This document shows positions 4,184 through 24,617 of a stretch of 34,544 nt of DNA, piece by piece (the stretch's first letter is position 1; each line of letters opens with the position of its first letter). The notes beneath the pieces are model-generated. The model saw only the letters and a program-made list of their open reading frames with translations, ran no database searches and was not told the DNA's origin. Made by a program: the position numbers and the translations under genes. The DNA is from a virus (taxonomy: Duplodnaviria; Heunggongvirae; Uroviricota; Caudoviricetes): the IMG/VR virus record IMGVR_UViG_2529292736_000012, one strand, 5' to 3'.

Positions 4184-5302
4184 GGCGGCGTTTTCTCCGG
4201 GTGTCTGCGATAATAATCTTCAACCAGCGCATCAATACCGCCGTTACTGTCGCCGCCTTTCCTGTTTTTACGGTCGCTTTCAACCGGCACCAGAAAGCCT
4301 TCGCGTGGTGCAAGGCTGACGCGGGTTTTCAGCCCGTCCTGGTCATTCAGTATCAGGGTGACTTTGCTGACCAGTAATTCTGTGGTTTTGATGGCATATT
4401 TCGAGGCATCAATAGTGACCAGCAGGTTCGGCATCCAGAGTTGCCCGTCCTTGCGTGTCCATCCGTCAATTTCTGCCTCAAAGATGATGGATTTTGCCAG
4501 TCTGCGGCGTTGCTCACGCAGGGCGCGGGCCTGTGCATCCTTCGCCGTAATTTTGCTGTCGGCAATGATGATCATCGGTCTGTAACGGGTCACATCACTG
4601 TCAGTGGCGGTCCCTTTCCGGGAGACGATACTTTTCGCATCAATATCATCACCCTCAGCACCGTTTGCGCGGGCATACCCCTTGACGGTGTATTCGCTGA
4701 ACCGGTCGCGGAAGTCTTCCTCAAAATCCAGTGTCAGCAGGTTTTCTCCGAGAACCAGCTCATCAGTGGCTGTGCTGGCAGCCCGGCTGAATACCAGCTC
4801 TCCGGCGGCATTGCTGGTCATCAGTACACCGCGTGCGCGGGAGGCACGCACCAGCGCCTCATAAACGGTTTCTGAATGGTCCAGCGTGAAGCCGGGAAAA
4901 ACTGCCGAACTTTCCTTATCGGAAAGCTCCCAGCGAACGGTAACGCCATAAGGAGCGCACAGGTCACGCGCAATCTGCTCCAGTGTGCGGTTTTTCCACT
5001 GTCCGCCACTGTAAACGGCAGCACAGTCAATCAGGTCAGCCGTTTTGTCACGTCCGGCGACAGTGATTTTCATACTGTCAGCGGTCATCTGGCGTCGCCG
5101 TGAATCGATATAACCGGTGCAGATAATCTGCCCCCCGATTTCCAGCGTGAACGCCTTCCCCGGTGCCAGCCCGGATAAATCCGTACCCGGTGGCACGTTC
5201 ACCCCCAGCTCAAAATATCCGGCTACGGATTCAATCGAGCGGGTGACAGAGACTGACGTCCAGCCGGTAAAAAGCCTGCCATCCGTTCGCAGCGTGACGG
5301 TA
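4171..5302 (-). pseudogene. P: Baseplate gene P (Mu gp44) interrupted by IS insertion; first 3 codons (ATG AGT AA-) lie on the far side of the IS at 6616..6623
   Basis: 343-aa ORF from an internal GTG, but the frame stays open up to the IS junction at 5302. Removing 5303..6615 restores ATG-AGT-AAT-ACC-GTC... (MSNTVTLRTDGRLF...), a 379-aa protein whose ATG overlaps the stop of N (ATGAGTAA). Confidence 0.85.
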
Positions 5303-5327
5303 TGAACCGCCCCGGGAATCCTGGAGA
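5303..5327 (+). repeat. IS left terminal inverted repeat
   Basis: TGAACCGCCCCGGGAATCCTGGAGA; matches the right end in 22 of 24 positions. Confidence 0.85.
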
Positions 5328-5356
5328 CTAAACTCCCTGAGAAAGAGGTAAACAGG

Positions 5357-5683
5357 ATGACTAAAAATACTCGTTTTTCCCCCGAAGTCCGTCAGAGGGC
5401 GATTCGTATGGTTCTGGAAAGTCAGGGCGAATATGACTCACAGTGGGCGGCAATTTGTTCCATTGCCCCAAAGATTGACTGTACACCGGAGACTCTGCGT
5501 GTCTGGGTACGCCAGCATGAGCGGGATACCGGAGGCGGTGATGGCGGGCTCACCACCGCTGAACGTCAGCGTCTGAAAGAGCTGGAACGTGAAAATCGTG
5601 AACTGCGCCGCAGTAACGATATCCTTCGCCAGGCTTCCGCTTATTTTGCGAAGGCGGAGTTCGACCGCCTCTGGAAAAAGTGA
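5357..5683 (+). CDS. IS3-family transposase OrfA (HTH / leucine-zipper part)
   Basis: 108-aa [33 protein letters not shown]...AEFDRLWKK, recognised as IS629-type OrfA. Confidence 0.9.
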
Positions 5684-6570
5684 TGCCACTGCTGGATAAG
5701 CTGCGTAAGCTGTACGGGGTCGGACCGGTATGCAGTGAACTACATATTGCCCCGTCAACGTATTACCACTGTCAGCAACAGCGACATCATCCTGATAAAC
5801 GCAGTGCCCGTGCGCAGCGCGATGACTGGCTGAAGAAAGAGATACTGCGCGTATACGATGGGAATCATCAGGTATACGGTGTGCGTAAAGTCTGGCGTCA
5901 GTTGTTACGGGAAGGAATCAGGGTAGCCAGATGTACAGTGGCGCGCCTCATGGCGGTTATGGGACTTGCCGGTGTTCTCCGGGGTAAAAAGGTCCGCACT
6001 ACCGTCAGCCGGAAAGCCGTTGCCGCAGGCGACCGCGTAAACCGTCAGTTTGTGGCAGAACGTCCTGACCAGTTGTGGGTGGCTGATTTTACTTACGTCA
6101 GCACATGGCAGGGGGTCGTCTATGTGGCGTTCATCATTGATGTGTTTGCCGGATACATCGTGGGGTGGCGGGTCTCATCGTCTATGGAAACGACATTCGT
6201 GCTGGATGCTCTGGAGCAGGCGTTATGGGCCCGTCGACCGTCCGGCACAGTCCATCACAGTGATAAAGGTTCTCAGTATGTATCGCTGGCCTACACACAG
6301 CGGCTTAAGGAAGCCGGATTACTGGCATCAACAGGAAGTACTGGTGACTCGTATGACAACGCGATGGCGGAGAGCATCAATGGCCTTTACAAAGCGGAGG
6401 TAATACACCGTAAGAGCTGGAAAAACCGGACAGAAGTGGAGCTGGCCACACTCACGTGGGTGGACTGGTATAACAATCGACGATTGCTGGAAAGGCTGGG
6501 CCATATCCCACCGGCAGAAGCAGAAAAAGCTTATTATGCTTCCATCGGAAACGATGATCTGGCAGCCTGA
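5680..6570 (+). CDS. IS3-family transposase OrfB (DDE catalytic part), expressed as an OrfAB fusion by -1 frameshift
   Basis: 296-aa ORF in the -1 frame relative to orfA, overlapping at GAAAAAG (5674..5680); integrase-core-like sequence (…HHSDKGSQY…YDNAMAES…). Confidence 0.9.
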
Positions 6571-6588
6571 GTTCACAGATAAAACACT

Positions 6589-6612
6589 CTCCAGGAAACC
6601 CGGGGCGGTTCA
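6589..6612 (-). repeat. IS right terminal inverted repeat
   Basis: Reverse complement reads TGAACCGCCCCGGGTTTCCTGGAG. Confidence 0.85.
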
Positions 6613-6615
6613 GTA

Positions 6616-8103
6616 TTACTCATTAATCACCTCAATACTGACACCACCGGGAACAAACAACGGGTTGCTGATACCGTTCCTGCGGGCCAGCCGTTGCCAG
6701 TTCCGGCTGTTTCCTGTGTAACGGTACAGGGCCACCATTGCAGGCATCGTCTCCGGCAGGCGGTGCGTTTCACTGCCCGCCAGTTGCAGCCCGCGTTTTT
6801 CCAGGTCGGCAACAACCAGCAGACGCAGTTGCGTAAGCTGAACACTGTCTGTCGAAAAGCCCTGCTCAGATGCCGTCAGAATGACGGTATCCAGTGCAGC
6901 CCCCAGCATGGCGGCTGTTTTTCCGATATCGGACACACTTTCAAATACCGGGGGCGTGGCTGTACCACTGTCTGAAAAGGATACCTGTGAAAAACCGCTG
7001 TCCGGGGTTATGGCAGTTAACTGTAACTGTCCCTGTGTGACGGTAGCAGATGTGCTGCTGGCCCCGCTGGCTGTGCCGGTTGTGGTGGACGGAGCATCCA
7101 GTACAGGTGCACGGGCGGCATTATCCATCCGGCGACTGAAATCCAGTGCCGCAGTCAGTGCCTGGCTGGCAGCTTCTGCCCGGTATGTCTGCGCCGCTGC
7201 CAGCATGACGTAGTTCAGTGTGGCAATATTTTTTTCTGCAACCGGACTGTTGTACGAGGTTGTGATTGTCCCCTGTCTGCCTGCGGTGGCGGCATGGCGA
7301 CGTTCGAATCGCTGCGCCAGACGGTTCCATGTGGAAAATGCTGTCCGGGTATCGCATAACGATGAAACGCCGGATAACGCCCCCATCAGCGAGGAGGCCA
7401 GCATGGCAGGCTGGTTAATCAGGCTGGTCACAGAGCCTTTCATCGCAGAAAGTGACCCCATCAGGCCGCTGACAGTCTGGGTGATCCCCAGATTATCCAC
7501 CGCATCACAGATATCATCGATGACACCGGTTACGGCATCCATTACGGCTGTTGCCGCCGCTGTGCCATCTTTTACGGTCTGCCAGACAGAGGACAGCGTA
7601 TCTCCCAGAGAACCGGTTACAGCAACAGCCTGTGCCGGTACGGCTGCACTGGTGTCTGTTTCTGCGTCCGGGGCAGTATCCTGCAACGACGGATAAACGG
7701 TAACGGTGAACGCGTAATAATTCAGTTCATCCGCTTTAGTGCGGCATTCCCATGAATCCACCATGACGTCCACAGTGCCGAAATCAGGATGTACCAGCTC
7801 ACCGCTACCCGGAGCATCAAGAGCATCCATCAGCGCACCCGCTTCATCTCTGGCTGTTTCTGCGTTGCTGTTCAGAATGCAGGCGCTGAATGTACGGGAG
7901 CGAAGCTTTTTCCCCAGGTCATTGACGCCGCCGGTATCACGTAACGGGTACTCGCGTTTAACCAGACGACGTCCGCCAGCCTGTTTTTGCTCCTCGATGA
8001 CGAGAAACGGCACGTTACGGAACGTGCCTTTGCCGGTTGTTTTCTTACCACCGCTGATTTTATCCCGGACAGCATTAACGGCATTTAAAGCATCTTCAAA
8101 CAT
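6616..8103 (-). CDS. N: Mu gp43 (N) DNA circularisation protein
   Basis: 495-aa ORF between tape measure and P; synteny. Confidence 0.8.
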
Positions 8104-8107
8104 GGTT

Positions 8108-10276
8108 TTACCAGCCTGTAATGTAGTTATCGCCCGCGTAAATATTCAGCCCCATACCGTCCTCGGTGACACGGGAACTGGCCAGTCGTAACCCCTCGCC
8201 AAGTTCGACGCGCAGCGAGGCTTCCGCATTCACTTTTTGTTCCTGCGGTTCCTTATCCGGGGCCGTCCATTTCTGATACAGGTCGGTTACAAAACCGCCC
8301 AGATACTCCCCGGCGACACTGCCCAGCGTGGCACCGGCAACCGTACCCAGCGGTCCGGCAAGGCTGCCAACGGCACCGCCGAGCCATGCACCGGCTGTAC
8401 TGCCAATTGCGCCTGCTTTTTCATGGGTTGACGCCTGCTCATCCATCAGGACGGGGGCAAGCTGGAGTGCCCCCATTACCGGGCCACCCAGACGTGACAA
8501 CGCACGACCGGCACCTTTCCCCATCCAGCCCAGCGCCCCGGCACCTTTTGTCATAACCCGACCGATCGCACTGCCTGCAAGTTTGTTTCCGATACCGGAA
8601 AACCACCCGCCAACAGCACGCCCGGCATCAGCCAGCTTTCCGACCGTTCCCGTAACCAGTTGCCCGGCAGCACTGCCTGCAAGCCTGCTCAGAAGACCGG
8701 ATTTACCGGGTAAAGGTAATGGTGCAGGCCGTGCCGTTACCGGTACGCCGGGTGGGGGTAATGCCAGTACAGGGCGTGGTGCAGGTAATGCCAGCGGCTG
8801 TGGCCCCGACAACAGCAACGGCTGTCGGGGTAACAGGGGCGTCATGCCTCTGCCTTTCCGGGTGCGGCCACCACGGCCACCGCTTCCGTAACCGCCGAAC
8901 CCGTGAGGCCAGTTAGTGACAAACACACGCTGAATGCCGATGCCTTGCAACAGCGCCTCAGACGTCATGGCATCCGGGACCGGCAGACCTGCCTGCCCAC
9001 GTTTGCGGTTTCGCATCCAGCGCCACATACGACGCCCGGTTTTAAACGGATAACTGGCAACCTGCCATGAGGGTTTTGCCACGGCCCAGCCTGCTCTCAG
9101 GGCTTTATTGGCAAGCCAGACAGACACCAGAACAGCAGCCAGTTTTTTCAGGCTGACAATATTCTGGTCAACCCATGCCAGCGCATCCTTACCCGGTTTC
9201 AGCCAGCGCCATAATTCCTGCGCCGCGATTTTTACCGTTCTGAACGTGGTCAGAAATTTCTGACCAATGTTTTCTGCCAGTGCGTCAAGTTCCCCGGATT
9301 TATCCGCCATGTCGTGCCAGTTAAGCACCCGGCGCATCTCGTTCTTGATTTCTTCAAAGGGGCCGCTGTTTGCCACCTTCGTGCGAAACTCAAGCAGGTT
9401 GCCCTCCATCTGGGCCATCATCCCGTCCCAGGAGTTCATGGCAGCCGCCTGTGCGCCTTTTGACTGCTCCAGCAGGGTCCGGAATACCGTCAGGATGGAT
9501 TTCAGGCCCAGCTTGCCTTTTTCACCCAACTTGCGGATTTTTTTCTCATCCTCACCCGTTGCATCTGCCAGCACCTTGTAAACGTTGATGCCATAGCCGG
9601 TCAGCAGGTTGGCATCCGCCGCGGTGATTTGCTGGCGGGCAAACATCTGTTTGAACTGTAACGAAGCCCCCTGTGCAGTGGGTAAATCCCAGCCGTGCAT
9701 CGCGCCCTGGTTCTGTAGCATGGTGATGAACTGTTTTACCTGTTCATCATTCATACCAAACGCCGTTGATGTGCGGATTTCCTGCAGAACGCCGCCCAGC
9801 CCCCAGGTGGTTTCTTTTGCGTTCTGTTTCGCCCAGGCCATCATGGCCTGCGCTCTGGCCTTATCGCCGTGATACAGCGAGTTCATGGCGATGATCTGCT
9901 GCTCACGCTGGGCGGCTGCACCAATAAACAGTTTATTGGCGGTGTAACCCACGCCAGCGATACCCAGCGCCCCGGCTGACAGCATTCGGAATGTACGGGT
10001 TGACAGAGAACCCATTCTGTCAATGGCACCAGAAACGCGCACAACCTCCATACGCAGGGCACGAAGGGAACTTTGTCCGCTACGGGACAGGGCGTTTATC
10101 TGGTTCGAATACTGGCGGGAACGCCGGGAAAGATTGCCATTAAGATCAATAATGACAGACGCCTTTAAGCGTTTCCCGGTCATAGAGATTTCCTGATTTA
10201 ACGGTGATATTGAGAGAGGGTTTTCGCCTGCTGGCAGTGCCGGAAAAAGCGGGACAGCGGGAGAGACAAGGCCCAT
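8108..10276 (-). CDS. Tail tape measure protein (Mu gp42)
   Basis: 722-aa ORF with Gly/Ala-rich repeats and a long helical region, downstream of sheath/tube genes. Confidence 0.8.
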
Positions 10277-10327
10277 TCCGGGCCACTTTTCAGAATAACG
10301 CCAATCGCTGTCGCCGCTTTCTCAATA

Positions 10328-10762
10328 TCATTCCGGCACCGCAGCCACTCGCCCCCGTTCTTGCGTCAGCGATGCCGCCACAGCCATGTCGTGCATCTCT
10401 GTAGCCAGCGACAGACGCTGGAAGTCATCAACAGACAGCTTGCGCATCAGCGCCAGCGATAACGGGCCTTTGATGCAACCCACGCTGGCAATCTGTCGGC
10501 GCAGCATTTCCAGTCCCATCCGGGACGGGGAACTGACCAGCACCGGGCCTTCCTTGCTCATTACCAGCTTTTCAGCAGCCGCCTGGGCATCAATCAGATC
10601 GCCTGCGGTCAGTTCACGTAGTGTCACGTCATACTGCATTTCAGTCTCGTCACCGGTGCCGAACGGCAGGCCGTCTTTCAGTTTCAGACCACCGGACTGA
10701 AGCTCAGCCACAATGCTGTCATGCAGTTCCTGTGCTTCAGGACTTAAATTCATTTCGTCCAT
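10328..10762 (-). CDS. Y: Mu gp41 (Y)-like tail assembly protein
   Basis: 144-aa acidic ORF between tube and tape measure genes. Confidence 0.65.
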   Translation of the reverse strand: MDEMNLSPEAQELHDSIVAELQSGGLKLKDGLPFGTGDETEMQYDVTLRELTAGDLIDAQAAAEKLVMSKEGPVLVSSPSRMGLEMLRRQIASVGCIKGPLSLALMRKLSVDDFQRLSLATEMHDMAVAASLTQERGRVAAVPE

Positions 10763-10771
10763 TGTTTCCCC

Positions 10772-11128
10772 TTATGCAATGCGTTTGCTTTGTTTTGCCA
10801 TCAGTACCAGCGAAATTTCGCCGCCGTCGTTTTTCGGTTCATCTGCCTGCCAGGCATTCGCCATCATCCAGGTTTCACCGGTGTCTGCCTGAAACTCTGC
10901 CGTGATGTTTTCCCAACCGATGATTTCATCCAGACCGATATCACCACCGCCCGGAATTTTGCATTCCAGCTTTGCGGCACGTGGTTTACCTTTCCAGCCA
11001 TAAACCCGCGAGCCGGTCACTTCTTCACGGGTGATGCCGGAAGGCGTGAAGGAGGCGCCTTCCATCGTTTCAAGCTCCATGCCATTGACACGGATGAACG
11101 CCACCCCCTGACGCTGATTTCCAGCCAT
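10772..11128 (-). CDS. M: Tail tube protein (Mu M, gp40)
   Basis: 118-aa ORF immediately after the sheath gene. Confidence 0.8.
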   Translation of the reverse strand: MAGNQRQGVAFIRVNGMELETMEGASFTPSGITREEVTGSRVYGWKGKPRAAKLECKIPGGGDIGLDEIIGWENITAEFQADTGETWMMANAWQADEPKNDGGEISLVLMAKQSKRIA

Positions 11129-11137
11129 AAATGCTCC

Positions 11138-12625
11138 TTACAGAATGAACTGAACTTGTGCCGCGAAAATGCGGAACTGGTTAATCAGATTCGGGCCGCA
11201 CAGCACATCAAGGCGGTCTTTGTCGTCCTTGTTACGTGCCACATACAGCTCCTCTTTGAACGTGTCGAAATCCTCGACCAGTCCGGCGTTTTCCCATTCT
11301 TCAAACAGTGCCAGCAGCTCCGTTTTGATCACGGATGGCGTCACCACGGCCTGACCGGTGGCAAAGCGGGTGCCATCACTTGCCAGTTTGTAGTTCGGGA
11401 ATTTCTGCGTGATGCGGGTTCGCAGCGAATAACGCAGATAACTCAGCGTGGCGATGGTATTCACGTTCAGATAAGACGGATCACTGTCACCGTACTTGTT
11501 TGTGCGGTACATCGTGATCATGCGTTCAATCTGCATTTCACCACCATCATTCACGTTAAACGTGGAGATGCCGTCAAACAGCAGCGCATTACGTTCTGAC
11601 CAGGTGAAACGATCCCCCACCGCAGGCGGCATTCTTCCGGGCAACGTCAGCGTCTGGAGAGGACGCGCCGGGTCGATGGAAAGCGCCTGGCTGGCAACGG
11701 CACACAGTGTGGCGGCGTACAGATATGACGGTTCCGGTGCACCGGCAATCCCCATACAGGAGATCAGATGATCATTACGACTGACACCAAACGTGGAAAT
11801 ATCCCCATACGTGCCGGACAGCACTGTCACGGCAAAGCCATCAGCCTGATTGACCGGTCCCCAGCGTTCCTGCAATTCAGTGCGTAACAGATTCAGGTTC
11901 GGTTCATCGGTATAGGGCATCACAATATATTTGTATTGCAGATCGCCCATTCCCGCGATACTTGCGCTGATATCCGGGTTGCTGTTTTTCCCGGATGCGG
12001 CTTTGAATGCCGTGATAATCCCGTAAGGGGTGGTTTCACCCGCGTAATAGTTCCAGCGCACGTCCACGGCAGATAATGCACCTGTAAATTTTGCACTCAG
12101 AACCACATCTGCATGGGTGTCATCATCCCCGCTGTCTGCGCGAACTTCTGCCGTCACCGGTAAATCCGGCTGACCTTTGATTCGGGCAACCAGCAGGTCA
12201 GCCAGCGCCGCTCCCGTTGCACCTGCTGCGACAGATACCGCCAGTCGCTGACCGGCAATGTAAGTCACAAGCGAGCCGTTTTCGCCTGCTGTTCCTGACA
12301 GTGAAATTTCACCGACAGCAGCATTACCGGTGCCGTTCCCCTGCGGAATACACCACAGCTCCGCCACGCGGTTAGCGTTCAGGAATGCATCTGCCATCAG
12401 TGCCAGCATGGAACCCTGACCAAACGCCGCACTGGCCTGTGAGCCGGAACGGATACGGACAGGCACGTCTGGTGCCGCACTGGCTTTACTTCCGCTTTGC
12501 CCGAACATCAGCACGCGCTGACGGGGTGCCGGTGTTCCGCTGACGGCATTACTGTTATCAAATTCGATATACGTCAGAGGAACACGAACATCTGACGGGA
12601 TCGCGTTAAATGAAATATCGCTCAT
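11138..12625 (-). CDS. L: Contractile tail sheath protein (Mu L, gp39)
   Basis: 495-aa ORF; size and position match Mu L. Confidence 0.85.
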
Positions 12626-12828
12626 TTCGATTTACTCCGTTTTTTCGGCGCAGCGTCGGTATCATCCGCCGTGTTTTCGGTGCTCCCGACTTCAACCACA
12701 TCACCGGCTGCAAGGCGACGTATCCAGAAACTGTTACGGGGCTTTTCTTCTCCCTCAGACGCCAGTAATTTCATCGTGAGCGGGTCACGGATGGCTTTTC
12801 CCGCTGCGGGTTTAATTTTCAGCATCAT
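12622..12828 (-). CDS. Small hypothetical protein (Mu gp38-like)
   Basis: 68-aa ORF with 4-nt overlap to L; synteny. Confidence 0.55.
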
Positions 12829-13360
12829 GATCCTTTTCCTGATTCACATTGATATGTGCGGCAAATTCCGGGGTTTCGTCCGGGAATTTCCAGGTCTGCC
12901 AGTGACGCTCGTAATCATCCAGCGAATCCATGTCCACCACAGACGGCAGCGGGGTAGTGCCACTGAACAGAACGCCGTAAAGCACCACACCGGCATTGAT
13001 ACGGTTGTCGTCACAAAGATTTCTGACCTGCGTCAGTCTCATCCCGGTGGTCGGGCCAAACGTCTGACCGTTAACACCGGCAATCAGTCGCTCCACAATC
13101 TGATAAATACCGGGCCGGTTTACCGGTTCCCCGTTCAGCAACTCCGCCACGACAAAAAATGCCCAGCGACTTTCAACTTCCCGACGCGTACGCCCCTCAC
13201 CACAGCCCATCCATGCCAGAAATACCGATGGCGGGGCCAGAAAGAGACGGTGCACATCCTCGTTAGTCCATGTGCCGGTAAGGGGTTCCACCTGCCGCAG
13301 GGTTGCCCCAAACAACTCACGAACGCGCGCCAGCAGTGCGGCTTCGGTTTCTTCCAGCAT
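12812..13360 (-). CDS. K: Mu gp37 (K)-like head-tail joining/tail completion protein
   Basis: 182-aa ORF; synteny. Confidence 0.65.
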   Translation of the reverse strand: MLEETEAALLARVRELFGATLRQVEPLTGTWTNEDVHRLFLAPPSVFLAWMGCGEGRTRREVESRWAFFVVAELLNGEPVNRPGIYQIVERLIAGVNGQTFGPTTGMRLTQVRNLCDDNRINAGVVLYGVLFSGTTPLPSVVDMDSLDDYERHWQTWKFPDETPEFAAHINVNQEKDHDAEN

Positions 13361-14258: not shown

Positions 14259-15176
14259 TTACAGGTAGTCAGCGACAACCAGTTGCAGCTTGCCCTTCAT
14301 CTCGTTGGAGACGGTGGTATTGCCATCCGCGAACAGTTCACGGTTAAGCAGTTGCTCTGCGGCTTTTTCCAGCCCGACCGGTACAACGATATGCGTCGGC
14401 TTCAGGCCCAGCTTCTTACCGCCATCACCTTCAAAAGATCGCATCAGTTGCCAGCCCTTCCAGAGGTTATCCAGCGTCAGATCGCCTTTTACCGCGACAG
14501 CCATCTGCCAGAAGCCGTAACCGGCAGCACGGCGGGCGCTGGCACCAAACAGGAACTCGTTATCCATAAAAACGTGGTCGTCATCGATACGGGTACGTGC
14601 GACCAGCTCCGGTTTGCGGCGCTCCTGGAAAATCAGCGGTTTGACTGCGCGGGAGCAGTCCAGCAGATAGAACGGCAGACCGCTGAAGCTGTCCTGCTCA
14701 ACGATGTTGGAGGTATTAACCGCGCTGCCCGTGCCGTCCACATTCGGATATACCGGATGCTCCTTGTCGAAGAAGTTCTGACCGTCATAGCACGGCTGGG
14801 TAAAGCCATCTTTCAGAAGTTTAAAAATCAGCTCATCCGGCTGAACTGCCGCAGAACGGCCCATCTCCTGAAAAATCGGCGCATAAATACCCAGATTGTC
14901 ATCCTCGAAGTCATCACGGGAAATACCCACGGTGCCTTCAAACGTTTTATTGGCGATGGAGTAGCCATGCGCTTCCATTTGCTGAATGGTTCGCTTACCC
15001 ACCCATTCTTTCAGGGTCGGGAATTTACCCAGCCAGCCATAGGTATTACTGCGGGTGGAAGAGTTCACCACCATTGCAATTTTGCTGTACTGCGACGGGG
15101 CGTCTTCAAGACCGCCCTGAAAATCCTTACGCCAGGAGGTCATCAGGGCTTTAATGGATGCCGGGGTGACAATCAT
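14259..15176 (-). CDS. T: Major capsid protein (Mu T, gp34)
   Basis: 305-aa ORF after the protease/scaffold gene; followed by a hairpin. Confidence 0.85.
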   Translation of the reverse strand: MIVTPASIKALMTSWRKDFQGGLEDAPSQYSKIAMVVNSSTRSNTYGWLGKFPTLKEWVGKRTIQQMEAHGYSIANKTFEGTVGISRDDFEDDNLGIYAPIFQEMGRSAAVQPDELIFKLLKDGFTQPCYDGQNFFDKEHPVYPNVDGTGSAVNTSNIVEQDSFSGLPFYLLDCSRAVKPLIFQERRKPELVARTRIDDDHVFMDNEFLFGASARRAAGYGFWQMAVAVKGDLTLDNLWKGWQLMRSFEGDGGKKLGLKPTHIVVPVGLEKAAEQLLNRELFADGNTTVSNEMKGKLQLVVADYL

Positions 15177-16258
15177 TTTTCTTGTTCCTGTTTCATTTTC
15201 AGATACTCAGCCTCAGTAATGCCGAGCGCCTTCACTGCTGCCTGTTCATCAGCAGACAGCACCGCCACCGCCGGTTTTTCCTGCGACGGGATTTTCGCTG
15301 TGGTGGTCTGCATGGCAGATAACGCAGCGATGGGCTGTTTTTTCTCAAGCTGTGCCGACAGTGCCGCCACGCCAATCTGACCGCCAAGCTGTTCCAGATA
15401 GGTACGTTCGCTTTTGAAAATGCGGCCTTCCTGTTCCGCCTTGTCCAGAACGGCGCTCAGGCTGGCTGTGGCGCTTTGTGCAGTCGCCTGTGCCAGTTCA
15501 TCACGCAGGGCGTTGTAGCTTTCCACAGGGACGTATTTCGTCAGGTCAACGGCGGCTTTCTGTGCCTTTTCCAGTTCGGCGGATAACGACGCCACTTTTC
15601 CGGCATCTGTTTCGAGCGCATCAAGCGCACTCAGGGCCGCGCTGGCCTGTTCATCGGTGATGTCTGCATTTTCGGGGACAGTCACCCCAAGACGCGCAAG
15701 CAGCTTGCGCAGCGTTTCATTCATGGGTTTGTTCTCCTGTTGAAGGATGTCGGGAAGGTCTGCCGCCAGTGCGGTCAGCTTTTTCATGCCGGTGGCACCG
15801 GGGTCATTGGTCAGCGCAGCAAGGCGGATTTGCAGCACCGCACCGGTGGCGGTGTCATACGGAAAAACCGCAGAGAGATAACCAAATTCGCCGTCATCGA
15901 TGCGCTGCTGGGCCGCCGCCGTCCAGCGTGGGTGGATAAATAACCCTTCACCTTCACGCCACTGCATTTCATCGGCGTTAAACCAGCCAGCCGCGACGAG
16001 TTGTTCCGGGGGTAATCCTTTGTCCTTACGTAGCTGGTTATGCTCGTAATCAATCAGCACGTCCTGGTTGAGCGCGCGAATGCCTTCAACCAGACGCCCG
16101 GCAATCTCACCGTCGATGAACCACCCCTGACCACCTGTCACATCAAACGGGCGACCATCACGGGCACTGAAATGACCGGCAGGCAATAGCTGGCACCAGC
16201 CGTCATCGTCAATGGACAGCGCATTCAGTGCGGCAATGCCAATCGCGTGTTTTTTCAT
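15173..16258 (-). CDS. I: Head maturation protease / scaffold protein (Mu I, gp32; Z from internal start)
   Basis: 361-aa ORF with N-terminal protease-like part and Ala/Glu/Gln-rich helical C-terminus typical of a scaffold. Confidence 0.85.
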   Translation of the reverse strand: MKKHAIGIAALNALSIDDDGWCQLLPAGHFSARDGRPFDVTGGQGWFIDGEIAGRLVEGIRALNQDVLIDYEHNQLRKDKGLPPEQLVAAGWFNADEMQWREGEGLFIHPRWTAAAQQRIDDGEFGYLSAVFPYDTATGAVLQIRLAALTNDPGATGMKKLTALAADLPDILQQENKPMNETLRKLLARLGVTVPENADITDEQASAALSALDALETDAGKVASLSAELEKAQKAAVDLTKYVPVESYNALRDELAQATAQSATASLSAVLDKAEQEGRIFKSERTYLEQLGGQIGVAALSAQLEKKQPIAALSAMQTTTAKIPSQEKPAVAVLSADEQAAVKALGITEAEYLKMKQEQEK

Positions 16259-16454
16259 GTCCTGCTGCTCATCATGGTTTGTGAGCAGTCAGTTTGCGGG
16301 AGGTGCGGGAAAATCTGGGGTTATGCTATTTGAGTAATGGAGAAAGAAAGTGAAAGGAAGATAAAACGGGATTCATACACCGTTAAATACCGGTTTAAAA
16401 ATCCCGTGGCGCGTTTTAAAAAATCTGTGCGGCTGATTTCATGTCTGATTCCGT
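16259..16454 (-). promoter_or_regulatory. G-I intergenic region: candidate late promoter for I and candidate Mu central strong gyrase site
   Basis: 196-bp non-coding gap in an otherwise tightly packed operon; motif TTCCCGCACCT shared with the region upstream of lys; inverted repeat ACGGGATT...AATCCCGT; located near the middle of the prophage. Confidence 0.5.
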
Positions 16455-16925
16455 TTATTGCCTCAGAGCGGCGCTGACGCGTTTTCTGATGGCATCAAAA
16501 ATTTCCTGTTCCCCGGTCTTATCCAGCCCCATATAAGGACGCGCAGGAACGCCTGCCGGGCGGGGTGCCATATCGGGTGTACCGCCCCACTGATGAATGG
16601 CAGCATAAATTTTTGGCGAACCAATCAGGGCATAATCCTGTCCATAATCGGTGGTAATGCTGCGTGCCAGATCGCCATGCAGGGTAAGAATACTGCCCGG
16701 AACAAAACCATGATCCTGACGCCATGCCTGCCACGAATCGCTCCACGCTTCCCAGCCTTTCCCTGTATCCGGGTCTGCCTGCCGTTCAAATGCCTGTTCC
16801 GTGGATGACAGCAGCGCCGCAGCCATCACACGGGGAATGGCGCGGTCACGTGTAACGGTTCCCAGTTCATCCAGTGCAAGCTGAATACGTCGCACATCCA
16901 CGGCAACGTTCATATCAAGACTCAC
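16455..16925 (-). CDS. G: Mu G (gp31) head protein
   Basis: 156-aa ORF; synteny. Confidence 0.75.
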   Translation of the reverse strand: MSLDMNVAVDVRRIQLALDELGTVTRDRAIPRVMAAALLSSTEQAFERQADPDTGKGWEAWSDSWQAWRQDHGFVPGSILTLHGDLARSITTDYGQDYALIGSPKIYAAIHQWGGTPDMAPRPAGVPARPYMGLDKTGEQEIFDAIRKRVSAALRQ

Positions 16926-18277
16926 TTATTCACCTCCACATGCCCCTCCAGTACGTCAATCATCCCGTCAGCAATCGCGGCTTCAAGCGACTGTGCAGAT
17001 ACGCGGCTGATACTGACCAGCACATCCGCACGGTCATTCTGTCTGCCGACTGTCTGTGATGTTCTGACCACAATCCGGGCCATGCCGTCACGGGTTGCCA
17101 CAACATACAGCAACTGGTGGTTCTCCCTGTCCCACAATACCGCCTGTGGTTTTGCCATCAGCGACGGCAGACGCTGTAAATCCTCCGGTTTCAGGGCGGC
17201 ATCAGAAGTGGTCGCCAGACTTTTCCCGTTCATCACAAGCAGACGGGCTGGCATATTCCCGGTGCGCTGATATACGGCCTCCGCCACGGATCCCGTCATA
17301 AAACCCAGCGCACGGACCTCATGTCCTGCCCGGCGTGATTTCGCCAGACGTTTAAGCCAGAGGGAAAAAGCAAGCTGACGCTCCCGGCTGTTATTCAGCG
17401 TCTGAACAACCTGCTCACGCAGCTGCGCGTCACGAACTTCCACCAGTTTTCGAATCAGTGCCTGATCCGTACCAAATGCCGCCGAACCGGGGTTATATGA
17501 CCAGCCCACATCTGGCGTCATTTTTACCCGACCGTTGTCAAACGTGGTTGACGATGTGCGGAAAATCTCTCCGGTGCTTTCATCCGTACCGGCATCCACT
17601 TCGCGGGTATTCATGAATGACGCACCATAACTGACCTGTAGCCCCAGTTCTTTCATGCGGGCCGCAGACAGCGCCCGGACGCGACAGCGGCAGTTCCAGC
17701 CATTGGGCGGGTAATGCGTCTGCCAGAAAATGTCGTCATACTGGAAAACCATATTGTGCAGCCGCGCATGTTCCGGGCGTGTTCTGCCATCCATAACGGC
17801 AACGTACTGCCAGTACGGGTACAAATCGGCGGTATTCATCATCTGCGCATAACGTCCTGCCCCATACGCCGTACGGGTATTGACGTTATAAATGGTTGCC
17901 AGACGACGCGGACTGCCCAGTTCGATTTCCTTCGCGTTTCCCTCTGCATCCACGATGATTTGTTTTCCCCACCATCCGAGTTTTTGCAGCCGGGGGGCCA
18001 GTGTGCGGGTAAATTCCTCACGGGTGATGCCTTCACTGACAGCCCGCTCCACTTCCTCACGGATTGTGGTCAGGACATCCATCCGGGTGGCTTTGGCAAC
18101 GGTAAAGGCGCGGGCGTGCGCGTCTGCCAGTTGTTCGTACCAGTTCCAGGTGATGTTGTAGCCTTTGGCGCGGAAATACGCGACAGCCTCCTTTGGCGGG
18201 AGGCGTGCGGCATACGCCAGATCAATGGTCTGCTGCGGCATCCAGACGCCCCCATATATCGGCAACAAAAATGGCAC
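16922..18277 (-). CDS. F: Mu F (gp30) virion morphogenesis protein
   Basis: 451-aa ORF directly after portal gene. Confidence 0.8.
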   Translation of the reverse strand: MPFLLPIYGGVWMPQQTIDLAYAARLPPKEAVAYFRAKGYNITWNWYEQLADAHARAFTVAKATRMDVLTTIREEVERAVSEGITREEFTRTLAPRLQKLGWWGKQIIVDAEGNAKEIELGSPRRLATIYNVNTRTAYGAGRYAQMMNTADLYPYWQYVAVMDGRTRPEHARLHNMVFQYDDIFWQTHYPPNGWNCRCRVRALSAARMKELGLQVSYGASFMNTREVDAGTDESTGEIFRTSSTTFDNGRVKMTPDVGWSYNPGSAAFGTDQALIRKLVEVRDAQLREQVVQTLNNSRERQLAFSLWLKRLAKSRRAGHEVRALGFMTGSVAEAVYQRTGNMPARLLVMNGKSLATTSDAALKPEDLQRLPSLMAKPQAVLWDRENHQLLYVVATRDGMARIVVRTSQTVGRQNDRADVLVSISRVSAQSLEAAIADGMIDVLEGHVEVNK

Positions 18278-21415: not shown

Positions 21416-21511
21416 GGGTGAAAAATCCGGTGTAAAACGTTACCGGCGAATCCAGGAACAACCGATCACCTGACCTGCCGTCGCCGGGCATCCGCCATTT
21501 TCATCTCCTCA

Positions 21512-21679
21512 GGACAACATCCTTAGTTGCTTTATGGTGGTATGCCATGAATTGCCTGAAGCCATGGCCTGAACAAGCACATCCCGAATCTGGTGTATCA
21601 ACCGGACATCAGACAATGTTGCAATCCTGAAGGCTTTTTTATGGGCACTGATTAGCTGTGCTTTGTAATTATTTTTCAT
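21512..21679 (-). CDS. Hypothetical small protein (56 aa) between gp27-like gene and large terminase
   Basis: ATG 11 nt after the gp27 stop; MKNNYKAQLISAHKKAFRIATLSDVRLIHQIRDVLVQAMASGNSWHTTIKQLRMLS; weak RBS, so uncertain. Confidence 0.3.
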
Positions 21680-21689
21680 AACGTAACGC

Positions 21690-24103: not shown

Positions 24104-24194
24104 GCTTCCCTGAAAAAATGCTCTGATGGCAGTCTAAAAAATCAGGTGACAGGTGCGGGATTATGGTGACAGGAAATAACCGGCAGGATGCCGG
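24104..24194 (-). promoter_or_regulatory. C-lys intergenic region: hairpin after C and candidate C-dependent late promoter for lys
   Basis: Hairpin CCGGCATCCTGCCGG just after the C stop; motif ATCCCGCACCT shared with the G-I intergenic region. Confidence 0.5.
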
Positions 24195-24617
24195 TTATTT
24201 TGGGCTTTCAGGTGAGAACAGATCAGGCTGATGACGCCGTGTATGCAGCTTTCTCTGGCGGGCAATAATCTGGTAGATCTGCGGCTGGGACAGGCGGTAC
24301 TGGCGACGCAGTTCTTCCATGTTACGACCATTGAACTGGCAGTAAAGCAAATCGTCGCGTAACGCGGTCAGGATAGTATCGCCACAGGGGATATAAAACT
24401 GCCGCCCGCCCAGAAAACAGGACAGGGCAACGGCCTGTTTACGGGCAAGCTCACGGGGATTGCTGACGTTCTGGCGTTTCAGTTCGTTTTCCAGAACATC
24501 AATCAGATCAACCACCGAACGGGGCCAGCGTGATTCCAGTTCCGGGGCCGGGATGTTATCAATATGTCCGATTAACTGGCGAATTGCCGGATCGTGTTCA
24601 AATAAATCATGCTGCAT
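24195..24617 (-). CDS. C: Late transcription activator C
   Basis: 140-aa ORF MQHDLFEHDPAIRQLIGHIDNIPAPELESRW... recognised as Mu C; paralogous to Mor. Confidence 0.9.
   Translation of the reverse strand: MQHDLFEHDPAIRQLIGHIDNIPAPELESRWPRSVVDLIDVLENELKRQNVSNPRELARKQAVALSCFLGGRQFYIPCGDTILTALRDDLLYCQFNGRNMEELRRQYRLSQPQIYQIIARQRKLHTRRHQPDLFSPESPK

Follow-up and report, generated by a model that had tools for sequence, protein, structure and literature searches.

Genomic setting of the G–I spacer

The window, a stretch of 34,544 nucleotides that was analysed as a whole, holds a Mu-type (Muvirus) prophage in reverse orientation, with the late genes on the - strand and with neither prophage end included. 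A non-coding spacer of 196 bp separates gene G, with which the lys transcript ends, from gene I (head protease / scaffold), with which the PI transcript begins (Table 1). All signals in the spacer are read on the - strand of the window, which is the forward direction of Mu, and coordinates around G–I were converted as window = 34314 - Mu coordinate.

Whole-window BLAST against Mu (AF083977) gave a collinear match running from Mu position 339, in gene c, into the G segment. Identity to Mu was 98.4% for a 14-kb query, and for a 501-bp query around the gap it was 99.8% to the Yersinia phages vB_YpM_5/6, 98.8% to Mu, and 98.6% to D108. The counterpart spacer in AF083977 (17860-18055) has the same length, and its alignment to the window, a check proposed in the preliminary description of this DNA, showed 98% identity, with four substitutions in 196 bp (16452, 16444, 16440, and 16337). 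The ORF of gene C lies inside a block 98.3% identical to Mu 7652-12881 (Mu C is annotated at 9963-10385). Compared with Mu, the window has ~0.57 kb of extra DNA in the left arm and a 1.31-kb IS element in the right arm, and since the IS element interrupts tail gene P, the prophage may no longer be able to complete lytic growth.

Intergenic distances between the Mu late genes range from -20 to +14 bp, with the exception of T/gp35 (66 bp), and the ORF coordinates in the window match this packing. A second long spacer is present in the window between D and E (274 bp vs 7 bp in Mu), where a 56-aa ORF (21509..21679, - strand) leaves 93 bp free. The preliminary description had pointed to a 196-bp gap among tightly packed late genes, near the middle of the prophage, and had proposed a late promoter and a strong gyrase site within it. 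The gap was confirmed from the ORF coordinates, the packing stands with T/gp35 and D–E as caveats, the central position holds by homology, with the prophage ends absent from the window and the Mu cut lying at 17879 of 36717 (48.7%), and both the promoter and the gyrase site are annotated in exactly this spacer of Mu.

In the late-gene direction, the gap contains no ORF of at least 20 aa with a start codon, and an Rfam scan of 15900-16800, with E values up to 1, returned no known RNA family. The gap is very probably the regulatory spacer at the centre of a transposable prophage of the Mu type, with four overlapping signals packed into its length. It repeats almost base for base a classic region of Mu that has been defined by experiment, with the same features annotated in the Mu records AF083977 and NC_000929, and is in this sense already known; the strong gyrase site (SGS) and PI of Mu have reportedly been under study since 1989-1990. 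The spacer also serves as a check, in that a first-stage reading of the raw sequence had recognised a known regulatory hub. In what follows, Mu identity, the register of promoter elements, conservation in relatives, and compensatory changes in hairpins come from the present analysis, gyrase cleavage, C dependence, and the mapped transcription start are taken from the Mu literature, and terminator activity and the masking function of the fold-back hairpin are inferred.

Table 1. Features of the G–I spacer and related loci in the window, with the corresponding annotations of the Mu record
Feature	Coordinates	Strand	Basis or remark
G–I non-coding spacer	16259..16454	-	196 bp; 4 substitutions vs Mu
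Gene G, last of lys transcript	16455..16925	-	
Gene I (head protease / scaffold), first of PI transcript	15173..16258	-	
Gene C, activator required by PI	24195..24617	-	140-aa ORF
Strong gyrase site, gate (G) segment, -25..+25	16408..16457	.	Limits from PMC6463007
Strong gyrase site, right arm, +26..+85	16348..16407	.	PMC6463007, PMC13284261
Three phased A/T boxes	16380..16421	-	Direct repeat and conserved alignment columns
Box 1 TTTTAAAACG	16421-16412	-	+12..+21 from cleavage centre
Box 2 TTTTAAACCG	16400-16391	-	+33..+42 from cleavage centre
Box 3 ATTTAACGG	16388-16380	-	+45..+53 from cleavage centre
Intrinsic-terminator-like hairpin ending lys...G transcript	16358..16407	-	TransTermHP in AF083977
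Late promoter PI	16271..16337	-	Matches 67-bp Mu-record feature; one substitution
C dyad	16335-16320	-	Centre ~-43.5; PMC2582627, PMC12867686
C box CATAACCCC	16317..16325	-	Contains right half-site ATAA, 16324-16321
10-bp match TCCCGCACCT in PI	16301..16310	-	Between C box and -10 hexamer
-10 hexamer CAAACT of PI	16291..16296	-	Register with other late promoters
PI transcription start, T or C	16283..16284	-	7-8 nt past -10 hexamer
Fold-back hairpin	16262..16292	-	Inverted repeat; RNA fold z = -3.5
Plys copy of the 10-mer	24151-24160	-	Overlaps C box CATAATCCC (24157-24165); between C and lys
Mu AF083977 gyrase cut site	17879/17880		misc_feature
Mu AF083977 terminator	17908-17953		TransTermHP
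Mu AF083977 late promoter	17977-18043		PMID 2522923; 67 bp
Mu AF083977 ribosome-binding site	18044-18046		
Mu AF083977 gene I start	18056		

Strong gyrase site and phased A/T boxes

The top-strand cut annotated in Mu maps by alignment between 16435 and 16434, which places the predicted cut 20 bp past the stop codon of G, and a staggered bottom-strand cut would fall between 16431 and 16430. The cleavage-site sequence is ATC^AGCC as in Mu, and the wider sequence around the Mu-annotated cut, AAATC^AGCCGCAC, is unchanged in the window. The right arm is 100% identical to that of Mu, as are all 97 bp past the cut, and the three substitutions near the cut (16440, 16444, and 16452, at -8, -12, and -20) all lie to its left; two of the three are shared by D108. 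In 19 sequences of the Mu clade, variation is seen at 7 of the 19 positions to the left of the cut; elsewhere in the spacer 0-4.5% of sites vary (1 of 47 in the right arm), much like the flanking coding sequence (~4.5%).

Published work on the Mu SGS describes a dispensable left arm (-65..-26), a gate segment at -25..+25, and an essential right arm (+26..+85) that serves as the transported segment (PMC6463007, PMC13284261). Variation concentrated left of the cut is the pattern that this anatomy predicts. Efficient replication of Mu and the prophage domain both depend on the SGS, and its right arm has been credited with "phased anisotropic bending signals" (PMC13284261). A Topo-Seq weight matrix ranks the SGS first in the Mu genome (Sutormin et al. 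2019), and by a plain match to the 133-nt Topo-Seq consensus string, which carries no position weights, the site ranks ~3,500 among 68,824 positions and does not stand out. The window lacks the nuB-type change found in the "Mu SGS" fragment of pMP1000. The site corresponds to the Mu SGS in locus, cleavage-site sequence, and right arm, and in being central by homology; it differs in the three substitutions, which fall in a naturally polymorphic region, the left half of the gate segment, and in its position, the IS element and small insertions having moved it slightly off centre.

Three A/T boxes, spaced ~21 and 12 bp from start to start, lie past the cut. For comparison, relatives were gathered using the I protein as query (35 viral contigs and 66 genome loci, the latter from Enterobacterales, Pasteurellaceae, Aeromonas, Vibrio, Oceanospirillales, Photorhabdus, and Gilliamella). 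In ~100 Mu-like prophages the G–I spacer is ~160-265 bp long, even where G is only ~30% identical, and at least two TTTRAA boxes are found in 55 of 61 distinct spacers, with the conserved order TTTAAACG, ~13 nt, TTTAAACGG, 2-3 nt, TTTAAACGG. In the alignment of diverged spacers the conserved islands are the phased boxes and the promoter elements. The boxes match the bending signals ascribed to the right arm. The order of elements is kept across several gammaproteobacterial orders, and the whole module, consisting of gate segment, three TTTAAACG boxes, terminator, C box, and -10 hexamer in that order, is ancient.

By this reading, host DNA gyrase would bind and cut at the gate segment and wrap the right arm, whose 60 bp carry the three phased TTTAAACG-like boxes, and processive supercoiling from the prophage centre would aid pairing of the Mu ends for replicative transposition.

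Predicted terminator of the lys transcript

The inverted repeat ACGGGATT...AATCCCGT listed in the preliminary description was found, with arms at 16366-16385 and 16388-16407 that are 80% complementary over 20 nt. That description gave the repeat no function; it matches the terminator predicted by TransTermHP after G. The stem runs from 16407 to 16366 and is followed by the U-rich tail UUUUAUCUU at 16366-16358. Folded as RNA, the hairpin has a free energy of -19.8 kcal/mol (z = -3.0). A 4x4 internal loop divides its stem into a lower part of 9 bp and an upper part of 4 bp, the latter made by boxes 2 and 3 and closed by an 8-nt loop. A stable, G+C-containing stem-loop is followed by a U-rich tract, as in an intrinsic terminator, with an atypical internal loop. 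The hairpin went uncalled in a consensus scan of 15900-16800 for promoters and terminators, whose limits are too narrow for a loop and an internal loop of this size.

In sequence and position the hairpin is identical to the Mu lys-transcript terminator, with an unchanged stem. Zha, Zhao and Howe (J Bacteriol 1994) are said to have mapped the 3' end of a ~7.6-kb lys transcript to the G–I region, and the distance from Plys to 16358 fits a transcript of this length. Among related spacers, 34 of 61 have a hairpin of -8 kcal/mol or lower followed by a U tail at the equivalent place, built from different stem sequences, with a common tail, CCCGTTTTATCTT, in Photorhabdus-type prophages; ~44% of relatives have no clear terminator. 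In Pasteurellaceae prophages canonical terminators are present between the boxes and the promoter.

The hairpin and U tail would end most lys-operon transcripts after G. As the predicted terminator lies wholly within the gyrase right arm, a stretch of 46 bp would do double duty, as gyrase-wrapped DNA and, if the putative terminator is active, as an RNA hairpin.

Late promoter PI

Aligned on C box and -10 hexamer, the 67-bp features of the four late promoters of Mu need no gaps; cATAAcCCC falls at alignment positions 13-21, and the -10 hexamers TAGACT, CAAACT (PI), TATCCT, and TAAGAT fall at positions 42-47. The transcription start of PI was placed from an oligonucleotide designed with 20 nt downstream of the S1-mapped start (PMC4461284). 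In the promoter alignment the ATAA half-site occupies -40..-37 and the dyad is centred at -43.5, as published for C, whose footprint and dyad extend from ~-30 to -55 (PMC2582627). Against the dyad consensus TTAT-N5-6-ATAA (PMC2582627, PMC12867686), the C dyad is present in PI with a degenerate left half, a poor CTCA in place of TTAT, identical to that of Mu. A C-site motif search, also suggested in the preliminary description, returned CATAAYCCC at exactly three places in the window, PP (7004-7012), PI (16317-16325), and Plys (24157-24165), all on the - strand.

No full sigma-70 promoter was found in 15900-16800 by consensus scan, as expected from the activator dependence of PI; PI has a -10 hexamer with no -35 hexamer, and the genome also carries its activator gene, C. 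From C box to -10 hexamer the distance is 24 nt, and in relatives it is fixed at 23-24 nt while the sequence between them has diverged; 49 relatives show at least 90% conservation of A at position 2 and T at position 6 of the hexamer. PI of the window equals Mu PI in C box, spacer, -10 hexamer, start site, and leader, with a single difference in the promoter, 16337 G to T at -53, just outside the 16-bp dyad. Mu PI is reportedly one of four C-dependent promoters described by Margolin, Rao and Howe in 1989.

In vitro, transcription from Mu PI needs C, which acts at open-complex formation (PMC4461284). In the prophage, Mu protein C would bind the dyad centred near -43.5, with the C box CATAACCCC as its right half, and sigma-70 RNA polymerase on CAAACT would start near 16284 and transcribe I, Z, T, and the downstream genes.

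Fold-back hairpin at the start of gene I

An inverted repeat joins -8..+3 of PI with the ribosome-binding region of I. Its 5' arm (CTGaCTGCTCA, 16292-16282) ends at the PI start, and its 3' arm (TGAGCAgCAG, 16271-16262) spans the annotated ribosome-binding site GAG (16270-16268); in Mu itself the stem covers this weak Shine-Dalgarno GAG and not the ATG. The arrangement is that of a fold-back element, with the 5' arm upstream of the PI start and the 3' arm over the ribosome-binding site. RNA started at PI lacks the 5' arm, and therefore the hairpin can form only in read-through RNA from upstream.

For 69 distinct 48-nt segments ending at the ATG of I, the mean folding z score was -2.8, with 61% below -2, compared with means of -0.2 to -0.9 for control segments shifted by -200 to +300 nt. 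Among relatives, three to four different Watson-Crick pair types occur at every position of the 3' arm, and such compensatory changes point to selection on pairing. The formal count of pairs covers one register group of 10 sequences, since MAFFT alignment of all leaderless-type hairpins put gaps at the 5' end and not in the loop. In this group 89% of cells are paired, against 80% in shuffles (0 of 500 reach 89%) and 21-45% in slid controls, and both partners have changed in 5 of 10 pairs. A covariance model of the 10 sequences matches almost only the I start in 239 kb; the covariance-model alignment mixes both strands of the palindrome and was excluded from the counts.

The arms themselves are diverse. 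Close enterobacterial relatives have ATGGCCT...AGGCCAT(G), ATGACCT...AGGTCAT, ATGGTCCG...CGGACCAT, and a variant with U.G pairing; the arms of Vibrio prophages read GTCACTGT...ACAGTGGC. In most distant relatives the ATG of I is found 6-7 nt past the -10 hexamer, from which their I mRNA is predicted to be leaderless, and there the inverted repeat brackets the hexamer, as in CATGCCGCC-ATCAT-GGCGGCATG, with further arm pairs such as GTTGC/GCAAC, ATCGC/GCGAT, GCAGC/GCTGC, and ATGCCCT/AGGGCAT. In Mu and the window, the start of I is preceded by ~26 nt of leader with a weak Shine-Dalgarno sequence.

No description of a fold-back hairpin at the I start was found in the literature that could be searched. 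Fold-back inhibition of read-through transcripts in IS10 and IS50 was reportedly described by Davis, Simons and Kleckner in 1985. In these elements, RNA from the element's own promoter starts past the 5' arm and the 3' arm lies over the translation start, so that folding is confined to externally started RNA. The hairpin at I is alike in the placement of its arms relative to the transcription and translation starts; it differs in that the gene is a phage head gene behind another late operon of the same phage and not a transposase, and in that the case made here is sequence-based. Among phages, lambda cI transcribed from PRM is an example of a leaderless mRNA. Most distant Mu-like prophages are likewise predicted to start their I mRNA with AUG, a prediction that applies to these relatives and not to Mu and the window with their ~26-nt leader.

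In read-through RNA, the fold-back hairpin would mask the translation start of I, and this masking, which follows the logic of IS10 and IS50, is the most likely role of the hairpin.

Alternative readings of the spacer

Two alternatives concern what the spacer encodes and where C binds. It is scarcely credible that the spacer encodes a small protein, either in the frame of D108 gene 31.5 or in an antisense ORF. A 42-aa CDS, '31.5', is annotated in the G–I spacer of D108 (GQ357916), and the + strand of the window holds a 46-aa ORF beginning with ATG (16337..16477); however, in the window the first codon of the 31.5 frame is ATC and the frame offers no ATG, GTG, or TTG start, the ATG of the antisense ORF is made by the window substitution at 16337 and is absent from Mu and most clade members, and no ORF is conserved among 61 diverged spacers, where conservation follows boxes and promoter elements and not codons. 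Both small-protein readings were rejected on these grounds, namely the absent start, the window-specific ATG, and the lack of a conserved ORF. It is also very unlikely that the sequence (A/T)TCCCGCACCT of Plys and PI is the recognition element of protein C. The preliminary description had noted this motif in the gap and upstream of lys, and the sharing is real and non-random, TCCCGCACCT occurring exactly twice in the window, at Plys and PI, both times on the - strand, against a chance expectation of 0.03 and with none of 100 shuffles giving two matches; with the preceding W base the copies occupy 16301-16311 and 24151-24161, and in Plys the 10-mer directly abuts the ATAA half-site. As a C-binding site, however, the motif fails on register: it occupies -36..-27 of Plys but -26..-17 of PI, a shift of exactly 10 bp, or one helical turn, relative to the -10 hexamer and the start, and being out of register it is not a common C site. 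It is also missing from PP and Pmom and is not kept in the PI spacer of relatives that retain the spacing of C box and -10 hexamer, and the published footprint and dyad of C cover ~-30 to -55 around a centre at -43.5 (PMC2582627). The 10-mer was rejected as a C site by its register and non-conservation, and corresponds to the published "10 bp match", which is not the C site.

The other two concern the inverted repeats. The repeat after G might be a by-product of the gyrase right arm with its palindromic TTTAAA boxes, or a protein-binding site. This is unlikely: boxes 2 and 3 do make the upper stem (ACCG/CGGT), the boxes occur with no U-tailed hairpin in two close relatives (L020 and L024), and the 4x4 internal loop and 8-nt loop are atypical for a terminator, but the 9 bp of the lower stem are not part of the box consensus and lead into UUUUAUCUU, diverged stems with a U tail are found at the same place in relatives (GAAGGGG/CCCCTTC in L007, GGGGG/CCCCC in L038, and ACGGGG/CCCCCGT in Photorhabdus), the canonical terminators of Pasteurellaceae prophages sit between boxes and promoter, and the transcript length attributed above to Zha, Zhao and Howe fits an end at 16358, all of which argues for a terminator. 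For the repeat at the start of I, the main rival to RNA masking is a role in DNA, as a supercoiling-driven cruciform that exposes the -10 hexamer or as the operator of a dimeric protein, and it too has a low probability. In its favour, the repeat of most distant relatives has the -10 hexamer as its loop, the repeat is ~150 bp from the strong gyrase site, and the covariance model scores both strands. Compensatory arms running through many unrelated sequences (e.g. GCCGCC/GGCGGC and GTTGC/GCAAC) would, however, be unexpected for a protein half-site, and enclosed mismatches are mostly G.T on the sense strand (~9-10, vs 3 A.C and 4 others), an excess that fits pairing in sense-strand RNA (or in top-strand single-stranded DNA), whereas in a cruciform such G.T pairs would be mismatched. 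The preferred reading is that the hairpin masks I translation in read-through RNA.

Possible insulation of gene I translation

From the masking reading it is tentatively proposed, as a possibility that falls somewhat short of probable, that Mu-like prophages insulate the translation of I from upstream transcription, by a covarying hairpin that would pair the start codon or ribosome-binding site of I with bases just before the PI start; in most lineages the -10 hexamer forms its loop and a leaderless I mRNA is predicted. Only RNA started at PI would then be translatable for I, and RNA escaping the lys terminator would be masked. Mu and the window, with their ~26-nt leader, would represent a derived version of this arrangement. 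If confirmed, the fold-back hairpin would provide a simple, testable case of translation coupled to promoter choice in a phage late operon.

Variation in the G–I spacer

A single substitution, at 16337 (G to T on the − strand, position −53), was found in the region of PI, the C-dependent late promoter of gene I. An antisense ORF of 46 aa, which is absent from Mu (AF083977), is common to just a few members of the clade, and was not conserved among the related sequences compared, owes its ATG to this change. The PI leader of Mu, and the corresponding part of the window, also contains a 6-codon mini-ORF (ATG ATG AGC AGC AGG ACA TGA); its stop codon and the start of gene I share bases (ATGA). A similar 4-codon mini-ORF is present in some relatives (prophage loci L030 and L034), and none in others.

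Four of the relatives, comprising two Edwardsiella-type prophages (L035, positions 1–1500, and L045) together with L068 and L102, have G–I spacers of ~490–760 bp, enlarged by DNA inserted between the three phased A/T boxes of the gyrase site and the promoter. The boxes are retained at one end and the promoter and hairpin at the other. The insert of L035 is A/T-rich.

Elsewhere in the window, the covariance model of the fold-back hairpin over the gene I start, built from 10 sequences, matched only once, at 15.7 bits (E 0.77), within gene N and about 80–110 nt downstream of the start of PP, a second C-dependent late promoter; this match is probably due to chance.

Departures from Mu elsewhere in the prophage

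Between terminase genes D and E, the window carries additional DNA encoding a 56-aa ORF with no Pfam match, and the only phage found with this insert was Yersinia phage vB_YpM_Tongde, at 89.7% identity. By BLAST, two stretches of the early region did not align to Mu, one of additional DNA and one a diverged substitute for Mu 4539–5046 (E5/E6 region). The invertible G segment, within which the window ends, is in the G− orientation, opposite to the Mu reference, and its identity to Mu is just 84.6% by BLAST, which together suggest a different tail-fibre host-range variant.

Coordinates of the features described in the text
Feature	Position	Strand	Description
Invertible G segment	402–1044
IS3-family target duplication	5300–5302, 6613–6615		3 bp, GTA
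IS3-family insertion sequence	5303–6612		1310 bp; inverted ends TGAACCGCCCCGGG...
Second hairpin-model match	6866–6894
PI-leader mini-ORF	16259–16290
Antisense ORF	16337..16477	+	46 aa
D–E insert	21416–21689		~270 bp additional; corresponding Mu gap, 7 bp
ORF in D–E insert	21509–21679	−	56 aa; begins MKNNYKAQLISAHKKAFRIATLSD...
Early region, additional DNA	27220–26928		~290 bp
Early region, diverged substitute	30344–29838

Insertion sequence in tail gene P

An IS3-family element, flanked by a target duplication and containing two ORFs with HTH_Tnp_1 and rve domains, interrupts tail gene P 11 nt into the gene (ATG at 6623, − strand). Copies of this element, 99.8% identical, are contained in >4,000 complete E. 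coli genomes, and the IS/Mu junction of the window was found in none of them. Because the insertion cuts off PP from the tail genes, the prophage is probably defective.
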